Shown: one piece after another, positions 1,329 to 8,883 of the stretch
Layout of the letters: every line of letters starts with the position of its first letter
How positions within the stretch are numbered: the first letter of the stretch is position 1
Origin: an uncultured archaeon
GTDB taxonomy: Archaea > Iainarchaeota > Iainarchaeia > Iainarchaeales > CSSED10-239
DNA length: 9,250 nt
Assembly: GCA_964468895.1 (NCBI GenBank)
Contig: CAYXWT010000031.1
Coordinates: 1-9,250, forward strand
Reading direction: 5' to 3'
Position numbers and translations under genes: made by a program
The notes under the pieces: model-generated
Told to the model about the DNA's origin: nothing
Databases searched by the model: none
Seen by the model: the letters and a program-made list of their open reading frames with translations, nothing else

Positions 1329-2006
1329 GTGATTACTATAAGTTTAATTAAACAATATGATAAAGTTGCAGAAGATTATTTTAGACTTAAAACTCAATTT
1401 TTTAAAGAAAAAGAAGATCGTGCTACAAAGTATTTATTTAAAGCTTTACCTAATTTAGAAAATAAAGTTGTTTTAGATTTTGGTTGTGGTTTTGGGTATA
1501 CTATTAAAAAGCTAGAAAGAAGAAAAGCAAAAAAGATATATGGTATAGATACTTCTAAAGTTATGCTAAATAAAGCAAAAGAAGTTCTAAAAAATTCTAA
1601 CAACTTATTTTTAGAAAATATTGAAAAAACTCATTTTAAAGATAATACTTTTGAGATAATTTATTCTAGATTTTCTTTACATTATTTAAAAAGTTTTACC
1701 AAAGCATATAATGAAATACATAGAATTCTAAAAAAGAAAGGAGTTTTAGTATTAGTTGTTTCGCACCCAATAATGAATTTACTTAATAAAAAAGAATTAA
1801 ATTATTTTGATCAAGAAATATTTGATACAAAAGTATATCATAACAAAATGACTGTTAAATTTCCATCTCATACTTTTAAAGATTATTTTTCTAAAACTTT
1901 TTTTAAAAATTTTAGATTAATAGATTTAATGGAATCTACTTTAACTTCTATTGGTTCTAAAAGTAATTTGCCAGGGGTTTTAGTTATAAAAGCAAAGATG
2001 ATGTAA
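1329..2006 (+). CDS. Class I SAM-dependent methyltransferase (Methyltransf_11/25-like), substrate unknown
   Basis: Motif I VLDFGCGFG at 1470-1496. Downstream acidic/hydrophobic strands (KIYGIDTS, IIYSRFSLHYL, LKKKGVLVLVV) are typical of the Rossmann-like MTase fold. The start is uncertain: the GTG at 1329 lies inside a GGGTGAT Shine-Dalgarno-like string (1327-1333), so the true start could be a few codons downstream. Confidence 0.8.
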   Translation: MITISLIKQYDKVAEDYFRLKTQFFKEKEDRATKYLFKALPNLENKVVLDFGCGFGYTIKKLERRKAKKIYGIDTSKVMLNKAKEVLKNSNNLFLENIEKTHFKDNTFEIIYSRFSLHYLKSFTKAYNEIHRILKKKGVLVLVVSHPIMNLLNKKELNYFDQEIFDTKVYHNKMTVKFPSHTFKDYFSKTFFKNFRLIDLMESTLTSIGSKSNLPGVLVIKAKMM

Positions 2007-2116
2007 AAATATTAATAATGATTGTTTATTATTATTTATAGAGTCCTTTTATAATATTAATTTTTCAACAGTATACTTGTATTTTGTATGTTTTCTTAAA
2101 AAATAGAGGTTTACTT

Positions 2117-2173
2117 TGTATTACTCATTAATCTGTATTACTCATCATATTTATAAACATTTTGAGTAATACA
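2117..2173. promoter_or_regulatory. Operator-like repeat set upstream of the Fic gene: TGTATTACTCAT x2 direct, plus one inverted copy
   Basis: Exact 12-mer tgtattactcat at 2117-2128 and 2134-2145 (17-bp register). Exact reverse complement of its first 11 nt (tgagtaataca) at 2163-2173, 5 bp before the ATG. Additional TTGTAT half-sites at 2077-2082 and 2084-2089. The motif contains G/C positions, so it is improbable by chance in this composition. Confidence 0.6.
2150..2157 (+). promoter_or_regulatory. TATA-box-like element (TTTATAAA) positioned for a leaderless Fic transcript
   Basis: TTTATAAA is centred about 26 nt upstream of the ATG at 2179. There is no Shine-Dalgarno sequence between them. 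It is flanked by the repeat copies above. TATA-like strings are common in DNA this AT-rich, so this is only suggestive. Confidence 0.35.
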
Positions 2174-2178
2174 TATAT

Positions 2179-3108
2179 ATGACTTATTTATCTAAACTTA
2201 AAAGAAATAATAAAACCTATTATTATCTTGTAGAAAACATCCCAATTTCAAAAGGCAAAAGAAAACAGATAAGAAAGTATATTGGTACAATTAAACCCAG
2301 TGAGAAAAAGTTATCTTTGGAAATGTCTAAATTTGAAAAAGATATTATATCTAAAAGAAAAGAATTACAAGGATTTTTTTATTTAACTAAAGACGAAGTA
2401 CAAGAAATAGAAATCATAAATTCAAATTTTTGGAAAAAATATACTAAACTTACAAAAACTCAAAGAAGTATTTTTTGGAATAATTTTGTTAATGTTTTTG
2501 TATATAATATTAATTCAATAGAAGGTTCTACTTTAACTTTTAGAGAAGTTGAATTATTATTATCAGATAATATTTCTCCAAATAGACCACTTGAAGATGT
2601 TTTAGAAACAAAATCTGCAAAAAAAGCTATAGATTATATTTTAAATTATAAAAAAGATTTATCTATAGATTTAATTACAAGTATTCATAAAATTTATTTT
2701 AAAGATAGTTTTCCAGATATTGCTGGTAAATTTAAAAGATTAAATAATAGAATAAGAGGATCTAAGTTTAATACTACTCCTAAAGAATTAGTATTAACAG
2801 ATTTAAAAATATTTATAAAAGAATATAATAAATTAAGAACAGAATTACATCCTATAGAATTAGCTTCTTGGGTTCATTGGTTTTTTGTTAAAATCCATCC
2901 ATTTCAAGATGGAAATGGAAGAATATCAAGATTACTTATGAATTTTATATTATATAAAAATAAATTTGCATTAATTGATATTAAAACTAAGGAAAAGCAA
3001 GTTTATTTTAATGCACTTGAAAGATGTAATTATTTAAATAATGCAAAACCATTAGTTCAAAGATTTGTTAGAAGATTTAAAAAACAATATAAAAATATAG
3101 AATTATAA
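2179..3108 (+). CDS. Fic-domain protein (probable AMPylase / nucleotidyl- or phospho-transferase) with an uncharacterised basic N-terminal region of about 100 aa
   Basis: Canonical Fic active-site motif HPFQDGNGR (residues 240-248, nt 2896-2922), matching HxFx(D/E)GNGRxxR and followed by ISRLL. An upstream helix carries NSIEG (nt 2512-2526), resembling the class II inhibitory (S/T)xxxE(G/N) helix. Confidence 0.9.
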   Translation: MTYLSKLKRNNKTYYYLVENIPISKGKRKQIRKYIGTIKPSEKKLSLEMSKFEKDIISKRKELQGFFYLTKDEVQEIEIINSNFWKKYTKLTKTQRSIFWNNFVNVFVYNINSIEGSTLTFREVELLLSDNISPNRPLEDVLETKSAKKAIDYILNYKKDLSIDLITSIHKIYFKDSFPDIAGKFKRLNNRIRGSKFNTTPKELVLTDLKIFIKEYNKLRTELHPIELASWVHWFFVKIHPFQDGNGRISRLLMNFILYKNKFALIDIKTKEKQVYFNALERCNYLNNAKPLVQRFVRRFKKQYKNIEL

Positions 3109-3563
3109 TTATTTTAAGGTTGTTATAGGATTAATATTCTTTGGGATTATTAGTTATTTTAAAAAACGACTTTTTTATGGAAGAGATAATTATAATTAAT
3201 TATTAAGTTTAAATTATTTTTTAAGGAATCTTTTCTTATTTAACTTTGAAGTAAAGATTTATATCTTAGAAATATATAAACATAATTTTAGAACTAATTA
3301 TATTGTACTATTATACCTATGGGTTTTCTAGATGATTTTTTAAATGGTTTTTATGGAAAGTGCAATAGTATTTATTGATAATAATTATTTGGAACTAATT
3401 TTCAGATAATTTGGTAATTTTAAGGTAGATATAAAAGAATTATCTGTACTGCTATGTAAAAAATTAGATTTTTGGTGTGATTCTATTTATTTGTATGATG
3501 TTCCTCTATATCAAAATATAAATTCTAAGATTAACAGAGTTAGGAAAAGAAGACATAATTGGT

Positions 3564-3941
3564 TTATTTTTTCTTATAACCAAATTTTTTATTATGATTT
3601 TTATGATTCATCAAATCAAAAATTAAAGATACAATTTCAATATTATTTCCTTTTATTGTATAAATCATTCTCCAGGAATTTGAAAGATTTATTTTCCATA
3701 AATTATTTACATCGTAATCTATAATATATATTTTAGAAATTCTATTTTTTGGTATGTTGATACCATATTCAGGATTTACTCTAAGTAAATCTATTTTTTG
3801 TTTAATTGATTTTAGTAATGTTTGATAATTACTACTAGTAATTCCTTTTTTTATTTCTTGACCTACAGTTTTATTTAAATCATCAAATTCTTCTTTGGCT
3901 TTTCCTGTTATAACTACTTTTATTGGTTTTTCTTTAAACAT
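3564..3941 (-). CDS. RelE/ParE-superfamily-like toxin candidate (125 aa)
   Basis: Pattern typical of RelE/ParE folds. N-terminal helical hairpin (KAKEEFDDLNK..LLKSIKQKIDLLRVNPEYG). Then beta strands LWKINLSNSWRMIYTI..IEIVSLIFDL (the aromatic-R-hydrophobic-I-Y signature). Basic C-terminal tail HKNHNKKFGYKKK. It is the second gene of a 1-nt overlapping pair. Assignment is from remembered family patterns, not a search. Confidence 0.55.
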   Translation of the reverse strand: MFKEKPIKVVITGKAKEEFDDLNKTVGQEIKKGITSSNYQTLLKSIKQKIDLLRVNPEYGINIPKNRISKIYIIDYDVNNLWKINLSNSWRMIYTIKGNNIEIVSLIFDLMNHKNHNKKFGYKKK

Positions 3942-4219
3942 TATAACTTAATTCCGTCTTTTATTGCTTTATTGAGTTTAGAGCTTTGGTTGTAAATCCA
4001 TAATATTCCTTTTCTACCATCTAATATTTTCCCTGAATTTTCTAAATATTCTAGTATTACATTTAAAGTCTGATGCATTATTTTATTTGGTAATCTTTTT
4101 TTGATATCTTCTCTTGTTATAAGGTGGTTTGCCTTCTTTAAAACTGTCTCTACTGTTAATACAGTTTTTAAGGTTGGATAATGAATTATTTCTACTTTTG
4201 TTCTTTGCATTTTCATCAC
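3941..4219 (-). CDS. Small winged-helix DNA-binding protein, candidate antitoxin/autorepressor (92 aa)
   Basis: ITREDIKKRLPNKIMHQTLNVILEYLENSGKILDGRKGILWIY reads as helix-turn-helix plus a beta-hairpin wing. Its stop TAA shares one base (3941) with the ATG of the downstream 125-aa gene (TAATG on the minus strand). Start is GTG 4219, with alternative ATGs at 4216 and 4210. Confidence 0.5.
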   Translation of the reverse strand: MMKMQRTKVEIIHYPTLKTVLTVETVLKKANHLITREDIKKRLPNKIMHQTLNVILEYLENSGKILDGRKGILWIYNQSSKLNKAIKDGIKL

Positions 4220-4393
4220 ATCTATATATTTATATATAATTATATGTATAGACTTATATATATTTGTTTTGGTTAGGTGTTTTTTATTAGTTATTTTACT
4301 AATTGATTTTATTATGTTTAAAGAATAGCTTTTTAATTTTTATTATATAATAATTATATAGTAATTAGATATTAATTGTGTGGTTAAATTTGT

Positions 4394-5059
4394 ATGTTTG
4401 AAGTGAAAGATTTTCCAAAATTAGAGTCACCATTTTCTAGAGAACTGATTAATAATAACTTTATTTTAACTTCTAAATTTAATTCTGATTATAAGTGGAT
4501 TTTTGATAAAGAAAAAGTTATTGCTTCTGAAAAATTAGATGGAACTAATGTTTCTGTAATAGTAGAAAAAGGAAAAGTAATTGGTATATATAATCGTAAA
4601 AATAAAATTGAAATTCTAAGTAATAAAAAAGATTTTAGATTTATTGAAGGTATTAATCATTCTATTTATAAAGAAAGATTTAGAACTAATAAATCTGGAC
4701 AATTTTTTGGAGAATTAATAGGCCCTTCTATTCAAAAGAATGCTTATAAAGAAGAAAAAAATATTTGGATACCTTTTTCTTATTTATTAGAAAAATGTAG
4801 TTATAAGTTTTGGTTTAAATTTATTGAAGAAAATATTGAAAATAATAAATTTGATGAAAAAGATATTTTTAATAAAATAAATGACATATTTAAAGATCTT
4901 TGGAGTCTTTATTATAGAAGAAAAACTGGAGACAAAATATTTGCAGAAGGTATTGTTTTTCATAATAAAGAAACTGGTAAAATGTGTAAACTAAGAAGAG
5001 ATATGTTTTCTTGGTATAAAGGAGATTCACATGATTTTTATAAAACTAAAATGTCTTAA
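4394..5059 (+). CDS. Minimal ATP-dependent RNA ligase family protein (Rnl2-like / PF09414-like nucleotidyltransferase domain only, 221 aa)
   Basis: Covalent nucleotidyltransferase motifs in the right order. Motif I EKLDGTN (Lys47, nt 4532-4534). Motif III FFGELIGPSIQ (res 104-114). Motif IV EGIVF (res 185-189, from nt 4946). Motif V-like GKMCKLRR (res 195-202). No extra N- or C-terminal domain. Confidence 0.72.
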   Translation: MFEVKDFPKLESPFSRELINNNFILTSKFNSDYKWIFDKEKVIASEKLDGTNVSVIVEKGKVIGIYNRKNKIEILSNKKDFRFIEGINHSIYKERFRTNKSGQFFGELIGPSIQKNAYKEEKNIWIPFSYLLEKCSYKFWFKFIEENIENNKFDEKDIFNKINDIFKDLWSLYYRRKTGDKIFAEGIVFHNKETGKMCKLRRDMFSWYKGDSHDFYKTKMS

Positions 5060-5371
5060 TTTTAATAAAAGTATAGTGTTATTATAAATGGTATAATTTT
5101 AATTTTTTTAAACAAAAATGTTCTTATTTTTAAGTAGAGAAATAATCTTGTGTTTTTAACTTTTTATTTAATTAATATCAGAAGCTCTTTTTAAATATTT
5201 CAAATTAACTTATTTTTGTGACTCTAGAAGAGAATCTTTAGGTAATACTACTAAATATAAGTATCCTTCTTTTATGTTTATTAAAGCAGAAAACTGTAGT
5301 TTTACAAAAAACTAAATTTAAAAATATTTATAAGAACAATGTTTGCTAATTATTATATAACAATTGTTATT

Positions 5372-5376
5372 AGGAG
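5372..5376 (+). promoter_or_regulatory. Shine-Dalgarno (AGGAG) for the racemase gene
   Basis: AGGAG lies 8 nt upstream of the in-frame GTG at 5385. This argues the real start is 5385 rather than the TTG at 5364 used by the ORF track. Confidence 0.5.
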
Positions 5377-5384
5377 TCTGTGTT

Positions 5385-6689: not shown

Positions 6690-8114
6690 TTATTTTTGTG
6701 AAAAGAATTCTATTGCTTTAGCTAGTTCAGCATGATCTTTTGCATATTCTTCTATACTTATTCCTTTTTTGTAAGCTTCACAAGATTGTACTAATGCTTT
6801 AGCTCCTGCTTGAGTTCCATCTGGATGTGCATGACAACCTGCACCCATTGTTGTAATAAAATCAACTCCACCCATAATATCTATAAATGGTTTAAGAAGT
6901 GTTGGATTTAGGCCACCAGAAACTATTGGACAACATTTTTTCACACCTCTCCATTCATCATCTTCTAGTATTACATGATGTGCTTGATCTTCTTGAACTA
7001 ATCTAATTGCATCTTTATCTTTTTCTGGAATTTTTGACCAACTTTGAGTAAAGAAGTGTCCATTAGCTTTAAAATCATCTATACCTTTAGCAGCAGTAAT
7101 ATCAGTATTAGGTGTTCCTTCCATTTTTCCTACTCCAGCAGTACCAGTATGAATCCCACTAGCTCCTGCTAATCTTGCAAATTTAGAAAGAACTAATACA
7201 CTAAAACCAAAAGCATTTTCTGGTCTAGTAAAAGCTCCGTGAGCTGCTCTGTGGAAATGAATAAAAACACTAGGGTATCTTCTTCTAAGAGTTTGTACTG
7301 CCATCCAACCAGCGGTTATTCCATCTATTAAGAATGCATAACTTCCTGGTTCAAAACCAGCATTTATAATAAGTTCACATCTTCTAATCATTTCATCAAA
7401 ATCTGCGGCTGAAACATTAAAGGAATGAACTTTTTTATTTCCAGTTTCTTTTACTGCTTTATCCATAGCATGTTTTACATGTAGTACCATTTTTTCATAA
7501 GGACAAAAATCTTGATCTGCTTGAGGTTCATCATTTTTTACAAAATCTCCTCCTCCAGCCCAGAAATCATAACATACTTCTGCATATTCAGCACTAGTAA
7601 GACCCATTTTTGGTTTTACAATTGTTCCTAATATTGGTCTTTTGTATATATTTAGATATTTTCTCATATCATCTATTGTATAACTAGGTCCATCATATTG
7701 TTCTAACATTGCTGGTGGAAACCACATATCTAATAGTTTTAAAGCATTAACTTCTTTCATACCTAATACATTTCCAACTACATAAGTTAGAATATTTTGT
7801 ATGTTTCCACCTCTATCAAATAATCTCCAAGGGTAAGCTATCCAAACTAATTCTTTTTCTAAATCTATTTTATAAACAAGTCCATTCATTTCTCTTGAAA
7901 ATGCTGTTTCTGTTTGTACTTTAAAATTAGTTCCTGTTGAAGATTCTGCTGCAATTTCAGCAGCTGCTTGAAGTGTGTTTAGGTCTTTACCAGGTAAAAA
8001 GTGAAAAATACAAAGTAAATATTCTCCATTTTTTACATTTGGTATATTAAAATTAATATATGCTTTTTGTTTGTCATTAAGTGTATTATATAATTTTTCT
8101 TCTTCGTTGTTCAT
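6690..8114 (-). CDS. rbcL: Ribulose-1,5-bisphosphate carboxylase/oxygenase large subunit, form II/III type (474 aa)
   Basis: Near-complete set of RuBisCO signatures. AAESSTGTN. GTIVKPKMGL. GGDFVKNDEPQ (carbamylated-Lys equivalent K193 at nt 7536-7538, Mg ligands D195/E196). IHFHRAAHGA. ARLAGASGIHTGTAGVGKMEG. PIVSGGLN. MGAGCHAHPDG. Sequence blocks match form II (Rhodospirillum rubrum CbbM as I remember it), but with 36 instead of 7 residues between QSW and PIVSGG. GAGGT RBS sits 7 nt upstream of the ATG. Confidence 0.95.
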   Translation of the reverse strand: MNNEEEKLYNTLNDKQKAYINFNIPNVKNGEYLLCIFHFLPGKDLNTLQAAAEIAAESSTGTNFKVQTETAFSREMNGLVYKIDLEKELVWIAYPWRLFDRGGNIQNILTYVVGNVLGMKEVNALKLLDMWFPPAMLEQYDGPSYTIDDMRKYLNIYKRPILGTIVKPKMGLTSAEYAEVCYDFWAGGGDFVKNDEPQADQDFCPYEKMVLHVKHAMDKAVKETGNKKVHSFNVSAADFDEMIRRCELIINAGFEPGSYAFLIDGITAGWMAVQTLRRRYPSVFIHFHRAAHGAFTRPENAFGFSVLVLSKFARLAGASGIHTGTAGVGKMEGTPNTDITAAKGIDDFKANGHFFTQSWSKIPEKDKDAIRLVQEDQAHHVILEDDEWRGVKKCCPIVSGGLNPTLLKPFIDIMGGVDFITTMGAGCHAHPDGTQAGAKALVQSCEAYKKGISIEEYAKDHAELAKAIEFFSQK

Positions 8115-8373: not shown

Positions 8374-8883
8374 TTGACAAAAGTAAAAATAAATGACTGG
8401 GTTGCAGTAGAATATACTGGGAAATTAGAAGATAATACTGTTTTTGATAGTAATAAAGGAAAAGAGCCACTTAATTTTCAAGTTGGAAAAGGAATGGTTA
8501 TTCCTGGTTTTGATAGTGCTTTAATAGATATGGAAATAAATCAAGAAAAAGAAATTACTATTAAATCTGAACAAGCATATGGATCTAAAACAGATAAAGT
8601 TATAGAAATACCAAAAACAGCTTTTCAAAGTTTAGAAAAGTTCGAAATTGGTAAAGAATTAACTATGAATACAAGTTTAGGGCCTATGGTAATAGAAATT
8701 AAAGAAATATTAGATGATAAAATTAAAGTTATATTAAACCATCCATTAGCAGGAAAAGTTTTAAAATTTAATATTAAGTTAATTAAAGTATTAAATGAAG
8801 AAGAAGTTAAAGAGTATCTTGCAAAATATCAATCTGATTCTTGTGATGGTAACTGTTCTGGTTGTTCAGAATGTTCTAATTAA
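8374..8883 (+). CDS. FKBP-type peptidyl-prolyl cis-trans isomerase, SlyD-like (with insert-in-flap chaperone domain) and a C-terminal Cys4 tail
   Basis: FKBP core blocks VEYTGKLEDNTVFDS, FQVGKGMVIPGFDSAL and NHPLAGKVLKFNIKLIKV. They are split by an insertion of about 50 aa (IEIPKTAFQS..MVIEIKEI), as in SlyD and archaeal short FKBPs. The tail is CDGNCSGCSEC (CX3CX2CX2C, nt 8842-8874). Confidence 0.85.
   Translation: MTKVKINDWVAVEYTGKLEDNTVFDSNKGKEPLNFQVGKGMVIPGFDSALIDMEINQEKEITIKSEQAYGSKTDKVIEIPKTAFQSLEKFEIGKELTMNTSLGPMVIEIKEILDDKIKVILNHPLAGKVLKFNIKLIKVLNEEEVKEYLAKYQSDSCDGNCSGCSECSN

Follow-up and report, generated by a model that had tools for sequence, protein, structure and literature searches.

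We analyzed a 9,250-nucleotide stretch of DNA (positions 1 to 9,250 of contig CAYXWT010000031.1, hereafter the window) from an uncultured archaeon of the Iainarchaeota, a DPANN lineage, and focused on the interval 2007-5384, where a Fic protein, a pair of small overlapping genes resembling a toxin and its antitoxin, and a stand-alone RNA ligase lie between core genes. An initial annotation of this DNA had proposed that these genes form a compact toxin-and-RNA-repair module. Comparison with related loci points to a different reading, which we consider probable: three units, each transcribed independently, make up a lineage-specific mosaic in a variable part of the chromosome, and the interval is not one co-evolved system. 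The window has a GC content of ~20% and encodes nine genes, which are given below together with the putative control elements and an unusually long spacer.

Up to 1235, forward strand: MetRS.
1329-2006, forward strand: class I S-adenosylmethionine methyltransferase.
2117-2173, forward strand: putative Fic promoter/operator, with repeat copies around a TATA-like box.
2179-3108, forward strand: Fic protein, 309 amino acids (aa).
3109-3563, no strand: featureless spacer of 455 bp.
3564-3941, reverse strand: RelE/YoeB-like protein, 125 aa.
3941-4219, reverse strand: partner open reading frame (ORF), a putative antitoxin, 92 aa from GTG at 4219 or 89 aa from ATG at 4210 (3941-4210).
4211-4270, reverse strand: putative promoter/operator of the small pair, alignable in 55 loci.
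4394-5059, forward strand: stand-alone RNA ligase, 221 aa.
5364/5385-6473, forward strand: Orr-like pyridoxal phosphate racemase.
6690-8114, reverse strand: form II/III RuBisCO.
8374-8883, forward strand: FKBP.

The gene content agrees with the initial annotation. All four genes with conflict or stress signatures are present, namely the Fic gene with its HPFQDGNGR motif, the small pair overlapping by 1 nt and the ligase with its KxDG motif, and they are flanked by MetRS and the methyltransferase on one side and by the racemase, RuBisCO and FKBP on the other, such that the general idea of accessory, conflict-type genes set among housekeeping genes holds. The spacers of 172, 455, 174 and 325 bp reported between them are correct for the starts used, with the exception that the divergent spacer becomes 183 bp when the partner starts at 4210. 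Gene order is identical in the 18.8-kb source contig (L001; loci are numbered with an L throughout) and in five other contigs of the same population. The closest genomes are other Iainarchaeota/Diapherotrites (DPANN), including the complete genome of Ca. Forterrea multitransposorum.

The comparison covered ~240 related loci, including a ligase-centred set of 80 loci from species-representative genomes (L012-L091, 1.07 Mb; 79 non-redundant), a toxin-centred set of 80 metagenomic loci around the 125-aa family (L092-L171, 0.57 Mb) and 59 viral ligase loci. Profiles built from the families were used to search the ligase and toxin locus sets. The results bear directly on the earlier claim that a RelE-type toxin is wired to the ligase. 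Of the 80 ligase loci, only two (L062, at 2.0 kb, and L065, at 0.6 kb) hold a member of the 125-aa family less than 10 kb from the ligase, in neither case adjacent to it, and the profile search found the ligase in none of the 80 toxin-centred loci. Three closer ligase relatives, with 68-71% identity, are likewise without the pair. In the first of them (L007, 68%), the nearest long relative, the order ligase, 99-aa protein, RuBisCO and FKBP reproduces the downstream block of the window without Fic, the pair or the racemase, and in the other two (L009, 70%, and L011, 71%) the ligase sits in unrelated contexts. Neighbourhood conservation of ligase and pair was the check that the initial annotation itself had proposed, with a lack of co-occurrence in other genomes to count against the module, and homologues of the two essentially do not co-occur elsewhere. 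Because the three units sit together only in this lineage among the ~240 loci, the proposed toxin-plus-RNA-repair module is unsupported.

Inspection of the divergent spacer leads in the same direction. These 174 bp had been taken as a control region shared by pair and ligase and hence as a sign of co-regulation, a view that is weakened by the distribution of the sequence itself. Alignment with 55 related loci places the partner start at the ATG at 4210, the start also used by the gene caller. Directly upstream, ~60 bp (4211-4270) retain 82-89% nucleotide identity in at least ten loci of other genomes that lack the ligase; the block is alignable in the 55 loci, and the sequence farther upstream is unrelated. 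On the coding strand the block carries a B recognition element (BRE)/TATA-like sequence, GAAAG-ATATTTATATAAGT (AAATATATATAAGT), three or four TATATAA-like repeats and, at its end, a GGTGAT Shine-Dalgarno sequence 6-8 nt before the partner ATG. Because the block is conserved where the ligase is absent, half of the supposedly shared region is best assigned to the pair, for which it would serve as a portable promoter/operator. Its conservation at the nucleotide level across phyla suggests recent transfer.

The two small genes share a single base (TAATG on the coding strand), and in 62 of the 73 loci with the toxin family the gene immediately upstream, on the same strand, encodes a partner homologue of ~90 aa. 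Context beyond the partner varies and often contains other toxin-antitoxin (TA) genes, including helix-turn-helix (HTH)-MNT and HEPN-like genes and another RelE. The pair was absent from the viral contigs searched. We conclude that the pair is a self-contained, autonomous and horizontally spreading type II TA cassette.

To judge from its sequence, the 125-aa protein is a member of the RelE/ParE superfamily, as the initial annotation had proposed. The match to Pfam ParE_toxin is marginal (23.7 bits against a cutoff of 23), and the match to TIGR02385 RelE_StbE (E value 2.9e-5) is below the model cutoff. Among relatives, 25 of 31 close ones and 21 of 99 diverse ones match ParE_toxin, and other diverse relatives match ParE_like, YoeB_toxin or HigB_toxin. 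With a profile of the 99 diverse sequences, several independent YoeB structures are matched along almost the entire domain, at E values of 0.0025-0.0036. Narrower inputs were less informative: a profile from a shallow alignment of the family gave no meaningful match in the PDB, hhalign of that alignment against a single canonical archaeal RelE was uninformative (probability 1%), and the AlphaFold model built from it, with a predicted local distance difference test (pLDDT) score of 51.6, was too poor for a fold search, its order of secondary structure being compatible with a RelE fold (beta-alpha-alpha, then a sheet of 3-4 strands). An exhaustive search puts the family at 690 representatives at 50% clustering. 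Across the 99 diverse sequences G60, L86, W90, R91, Y94, H113, Y116, F120 and Y122 are near-invariant, and the conserved C-terminal H-x-x-Y-x-x-x-F-x-Y segment probably carries catalytic residues.

The partner protein belongs to no described family. All of its profile matches are sub-threshold and all are to winged-helix families (SelB-wing_2, TBPIP, TFIIE_beta, WH_Rok), and a search of the PDB with its profile found no solved relative. It is a probable winged-helix antitoxin.

The Fic protein forms a second unit. It carries HPFQDGNGRISR at residues 240-251, which conforms to the HxFx(D/E)GNGRxxR active-site motif, and matches Pfam Fic with 68.2 bits (E 1.2e-18). Its closest solved relatives are BtFic 3cuc (1.3e-21) and human FICD (1.3e-19), with an alignment that spans the inhibitory-helix region NSIEGSTLT. 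When compared with the inhibitory motif (S/T)xxxE(G/N), YNINSIEGSTLT of the window protein aligns with YNSNHLEGNTLT of BtFic 3cuc; the Glu-Gly is present, and the Ser stands at -2, not at -4. In PADLOC the protein matches the candidate single-gene system PDC-S04 (4.6e-35) and SoFic (2.1e-21). Across Diapherotrites, orthologues of ~310 aa (52-82% identity) are found in a number of different neighbourhoods.

Upstream of the Fic gene, TGTATTACTCA occurs as two direct copies (2117-2127 and 2134-2144) and one inverted copy (2163-2173) that flank a TATA-like TTTATAAA (2150-2157). The same arrangement of repeats precedes the 81%-identical Fic genes of Ca. Forterrea (L014) and ainarchaeum (L013). Distant Fic genes in L039 and L051 have different palindromes at the same position, these being inverted repeats TATCGGATA (L039:1919-2040) and TACCCCTACA/TGTAGGGGTA (L051:12786-12900), again around a TATA-like box. 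From this pattern it seems that archaeal Fic genes of this kind generally have an operator particular to their subfamily, with 2117-2173 as the putative operator in the window. Four Fic orthologue loci (82, 80, 58 and 56% identity) contain no ligase or pair within 6 kb, and two of them (L172 and L174) share TK-DUF2666 synteny. Because the repeats are kept with the gene in Forterrea and the orthologue loci are without ligase and pair, the Fic gene appears to be its own transcription unit. The claim that Fic acts here as a toxin fits poorly with an enzyme of the class II (FICD/BtFic-like) type that has a putative internal inhibitory-helix region, a putative operator of its own and its own synteny elsewhere. 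Its features suit a regulated class II AMPylase better than a toxin paired with a separate antitoxin, and the protein is a probable autoinhibited AMPylase.

Two side observations concern RuBisCO near these genes. In another Diapherotrites genome (L176:6001-10061) a RuBisCO-like ORF of 348 aa, which matches the window RuBisCO at E 1.4e-13, comes immediately after the Fic orthologue, and a second Fic gene stands 2 kb beyond it. In the window, L007 and L037, the distance between RuBisCO and the ligase is less than 3 kb. Either an old Fic/ligase/RuBisCO neighbourhood or mere coincidence could lie behind this.

The third unit is the ligase (4394-5059), which contains EKLDGTN (K47) and matches Pfam RNA_ligase (PF09414) with 38.7 bits against a cutoff of 27. 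In 37 family members with 41-73% identity the motif residues K47-x-D49-G50, N67-R68, F105-G106-E107, E185-G186-x-x-F189 and K199-L200-R201-x-D203 are invariant, where motifs Ia, III, IV and V were assigned by position and by alignment to T4 Rnl2. Motif V reads K-x-R (K-L-R), not K-x-K. The AlphaFold model (pLDDT 93.5) has an adenylyltransferase fold, and its best 31 Foldseek matches in the PDB are all RNA ligases, among them Naegleria Rnl5 (E 1.9e-5), T4 Rnl2, REL1 and Pab1020. Best mutual coverage is with Yasminevirus C12orf29/RLIG1, at template modelling (TM) scores of 0.55/0.51, and the family profile matches the adenylyltransferase domain of T4 Rnl2 with an E value of 2e-5.

The ligase is not an Rnl2 proper, because it has no C-terminal domain, ending ~20 aa after motif V, and scores 19.1 bits against the TIGR02307 cutoff of 197. 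Its score against TIGR02306 (DRB0094) is far below the cutoff. The RLIG1 model PF17720 gives no match to the window ligase at E<=1, and relatives P0051, P0108 and P0105 score 33.3, 27.5 and 25.5 bits against its cutoff of 25. The family, with at least 756 proteins of ~200-245 aa in DPANN, Thermoplasmatota and Asgard archaea, the candidate phyla radiation (CPR) and other bacteria, and viruses, is frequent on viral contigs. It lies between Rnl2/Rnl5 and human RLIG1 and keeps all catalytic motifs. RLIG1 homologues are minimal 5'-P/3'-OH ligases that seal breaks in the anticodon loop of tRNA in vitro (PMC11071452, PMC9931718) and occur in viruses (PMC11071452). On the basis of the invariant motifs, the RNA-ligase fold and the RLIG1-type relatives, we infer a minimal ATP-dependent 5'-P/3'-OH RNA ligase that consists of the adenylyltransferase domain only and looks active. 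In L037 and L041 the ligase is split into two ORFs. Biochemical work on the archaeal, CPR or viral ligase family, or on a link of the ligase to AbiE or Fic, was not found in the literature searched, with Burroughs and Aravind (2016) outside that search.

To understand what the ligase keeps company with, its neighbours were clustered and counted within 3 kb of the ligase (39% of surveyed bases) versus farther away. Lineages in this test are not fully independent, and the p values of the four enriched families are to be read with that in mind:

Fic: in 13 of 79 loci, nearest copy within 3 kb in 12 (p 9.7e-5), within 300 bp in 4, of which 3 on the same strand.
AbiEi: in 19 of 79 loci, nearest copy within 3 kb in 15 (p 4.3e-4), within 300 bp in 8.
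AbiEii: in 17 of 79 loci, nearest copy within 3 kb in 13 (p 1.8e-3), within 300 bp in 3.
Calcineurin-like phosphoesterase: in 7 of 79 loci, nearest copy within 3 kb in all 7 (p 1.3e-3), within 300 bp in 2.

The test is not trivially biased, because neither AAA_14/DUF4143 genes, present in 10 of 80 ligase loci, nor MNT genes are skewed toward the ligase. AbiEi and AbiEii are often contiguous with it (for example in L037, L043, L062, L066, L071, L075 and L083), and 30 of 79 loci hold one or more of Fic, AbiE, phosphoesterase, MNT and the 125-aa family within 3 kb. Across the 59 viral ligase loci the sole shared neighbour is the phosphoesterase (10 of 59, directly downstream in L206, L210, L211 and L221); Fic, AbiE and RelE-like genes were found in none of them. 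The phosphoesterase is also directly adjacent to the ligase in L070 and L084, and no 5'-kinase was seen in any ligase neighbourhood. Such a phosphoesterase could heal RNA 3' ends and is the kind of enzyme that the initial annotation had noted as lacking from its module; it is absent from the window. Given the non-random proximity of the ligase to Fic, to AbiEi/AbiEii and to the phosphoesterase, it is plausible that the family serves in conflict or in RNA repair.

Further arrangements were seen in particular lineages. A block specific to Woese-, Pace- and Nanoarchaeota (L045, L050, L052, L056, L057, L060, L065, L073) places a ~74-aa protein and a ~115-aa coiled-coil protein directly upstream of the ligase (7 loci each, all proximal), a ~73-aa Cys-rich protein directly downstream and RadC (JAB) on the opposite strand. 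In Ca. Haladaptatiplasma (L081:2386-5047), a Fic gene beside AbiEi and the ligase is broken into five ORF fragments and is apparently a pseudogene.

Neither a tRNA nor an Rfam RNA was found in the window, and no mobile-element boundaries were detected around 2007-5384, where the repeats are chance AT-rich ones and there is no tRNA. The unusually long 455-bp spacer (3109-3563) lies downstream of both the Fic gene and the toxin gene. It holds no ORF of at least 50 aa wholly inside it and no Rfam or tRNA match, has no counterpart by blastx or blastn among the fetched loci, and shows no RNA folding signal (z-scores -0.10 and -0.26). An NYN-like gene remnant (ESAIVFIDNNYLELI) was suspected there and found no support. 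The spacer may be debris of the rearrangement that joined the units. A 77-aa TTG ORF at 3491-3724 on the forward strand, antisense to the 3' end of the toxin gene, is of low complexity, has no homologue and is probably spurious. The methyltransferase at 1329-2006 was considered as a Hen1-like repair partner and rejected: it appears to be of the generic BioC/UbiE type by its profile matches, and no homologue lies near any other ligase. Upstream of MetRS, the source contig (L001:787-4886) carries an AAA_14/DUF4143 ATPase, a 410-aa uncharacterized protein and a 467-aa protein with a faint DDE transposase match, and given these genes the wider region is variable.

Taken as a mosaic, the interval would work as three separate devices, whose activities and operator functions are here predicted. 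The winged-helix antitoxin would bind the TATATAA repeats of its own promoter, repress it and sequester the toxin, and a freed RelE/YoeB-like toxin would cleave ribosome-bound mRNA by means of Arg91 and the C-terminal His113/Tyr122. The ligase would self-adenylylate on Lys47 and seal 5'-phosphate/3'-OH breaks, probably in tRNA or another stable RNA, with 3'-end healing supplied elsewhere by a phosphoesterase. Fic would be an autoinhibited protein AMPylase expressed from its own repeat-flanked promoter.

Several observations weigh against so loose an assembly. The promoters of pair and ligase stand back to back within 183 bp in the window, such that local cross-regulation is possible, and a relative of the pair lies within ~2 kb of the ligase in L062 and L065. 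The closeness of Fic to the ligase in 12 of 13 Fic-bearing loci, against 39% expected, makes some functional link between these two possible, and in the next-closest genomes, Forterrea and ainarchaeum, the 81%-identical Fic begins 81-90 bp after the ligase.

These last points favor an alternative in which Fic and ligase are a functional two-gene system, as in Forterrea, and the TA cassette and 455-bp spacer are later insertions or rearrangements. Since the window Fic and the one downstream of the Forterrea ligase are orthologues, this link is the most credible remnant of the module idea. Ligase then Fic on the same strand, 22-97 bp apart, is seen in Iainarchaeota (L013/L014), Parcubacteria (L035) and a gammaproteobacterial metagenome-assembled genome (L064), and the two are divergent neighbours in Aenigmatarchaeota (L016), so that Fic is found within 300 bp of the ligase in four lineages. 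Ligase loci also contain Fic more often than toxin loci (14/80 versus 3/80; AbiEi, 19/80 versus 2/80), although this contrast between sets is not significant for loci of at least 8 kb. Against such a system, all four Fic orthologue loci are without ligase, three of five close ligase lineages are without Fic, no viral ligase locus contains Fic, and the Fic promoter/operator is kept even where Fic follows the ligase. The Fic/AbiE skew could moreover reflect shared residence in accessory islands without functional coupling. We regard a two-gene system as unlikely in the window.

Quite unlikely is a broader version, in which the ~220-aa ligase family is a dedicated accessory of nucleotide-transferring toxin systems (AbiEii nucleotidyltransferases (NTases) and Fic) that might, for instance, mend, rejoin or process in another way the RNAs they damage or 3'-modify, would serve viruses as a counter-defence RNA-repair cassette with the phosphoesterase, and would survive in the window as a Fic and ligase split by insertion of the TA pair.

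A further alternative concerns the 125-aa protein alone, whose RelE fold could belong to a conserved factor that has some cellular function in DPANN, and not to a growth-arresting toxin. Its conservation is unusually high for a toxin (a constant 125-126 aa, sequences 65-78% identical between Woese-, Aenigm- and Nanoarchaeota, and a mean column identity of 80%), it has no PADLOC match, and the window copy has His (codon 3594-3596, reverse strand) at position 116, within the conserved C-terminal segment, where at least 90% of the 99 diverse relatives have Tyr. This reading is improbable, in that it has to contend with a canonical overlapping two-gene operon with a DNA-binding-type partner, a variable context rich in other TA genes, a promoter whose conservation across phyla suggests recent transfer, and Arg and C-terminal His/Tyr residues conserved as in YoeB.

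RelE-type cleavage leaves 2',3'-cyclic phosphate and 5'-OH ends, which are not substrates for 5'-P/3'-OH ligases. This caveat had accompanied the original proposal and is borne out by the absence of any kinase or phosphoesterase among the nine window genes, which also include no Hen1-type partner and no AbiE. Although the window and all five other same-population contigs that show both sides of the spacer have the toxin and ligase genes as divergent neighbours, and L062 and L065 have pair relatives at 0.6-2 kb from their ligase, a damage-and-repair module of RelE-like toxin and ligase, co-regulated from the divergent spacer and with Fic as a further toxin, is very improbable given co-occurrence of 2/80 and 0/80, nearest ligase relatives without the pair, a conserved spacer part that belongs to the pair alone and RNA ends unsuited to a 5'-P/3'-OH ligase.

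We therefore return to the mosaic of independent units. Each gene belongs to a known kind, and as a conserved system the proposed module does not exist. For the window itself the consequence is small, beyond an illustration of how neighbouring accessory genes can mimic a designed module in a DPANN genome that is small and AT-rich. The ligase-family associations and the antitoxin family are modestly interesting leads. The former offer an uncharacterized minimal ligase family, with a recurrent phosphoesterase partner and non-random proximity to AbiE and Fic, as a tractable candidate for RNA repair in prokaryotes and viruses. The latter is an antitoxin family not described before, a probable winged helix paired with an unusually conserved RelE/YoeB-like toxin and spreading among DPANN with its own promoter. 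Operator-like repeats upstream of archaeal Fic genes are a further by-product.

Comparison with known systems places each unit near, and apart from, established relatives. The window Fic shares the canonical HxFx(D/E)GNGRxxR motif of class II Fic AMPylases (FICD/HYPE, BtFic 3cuc, SoFic). In contrast to these, its inhibitory motif is N-S-I-E-G with no Ser/Thr at the canonical -4 position, it has an extra N-terminal region of ~80 aa (KTYYYL...), and it scores far below the equivalog cutoffs of the NCBIfam Fic models.

The window ligase shares the KxDG lysine and motifs Ia, III, IV and V with T4 Rnl2, Rnl5 and RLIG1, and like RLIG1 it is a minimal single-module enzyme of 220-240 aa. It differs from Rnl2 and Rnl5 in having neither the Rnl2 C-terminal domain nor the Rnl5 N-terminal domain, and its TM scores are only 0.4-0.55. 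At the level of neighbourhoods, the window itself is without the phosphoesterase, kinase, Hen1-type partner or AbiE that would liken it to RNA-repair cassettes such as T4 Pnkp + Rnl1, bacterial Pnkp/Hen1 and RlaP-associated ligase operons, whereas the ligase family does resemble them in that a phosphoesterase follows the ligase (7/79 cellular and 10/59 viral loci) and, as in the RlaP-associated operons, in standing beside Pol-beta-fold NTases (AbiEii). A link between RNA ligases and RlaP NTases, the RNA-ligase-associated NTases defined by Burroughs and Aravind (2016), is described in PMC12776372, which cites that study.

The small pair is closest to YefM-YoeB and RelBE. As in these systems, the antitoxin gene lies upstream and overlaps the toxin gene by 1 base, the toxin family matches the ParE_toxin, YoeB_toxin and HigB_toxin models as well as YoeB structures, an Arg on the central strand and C-terminal His/Tyr are conserved, and repeats are found in the promoter region. 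Compared with YoeB or RelE, the window toxin has ~40 additional residues and a basic KKFGYKKK tail at its end, while its partner is a probable winged helix with no Pfam family, unlike the Phd/YefM or RelB ribbon-helix-helix antitoxins. The pair also differs from YefM-YoeB and RelBE in its exceptional conservation across DPANN phyla.

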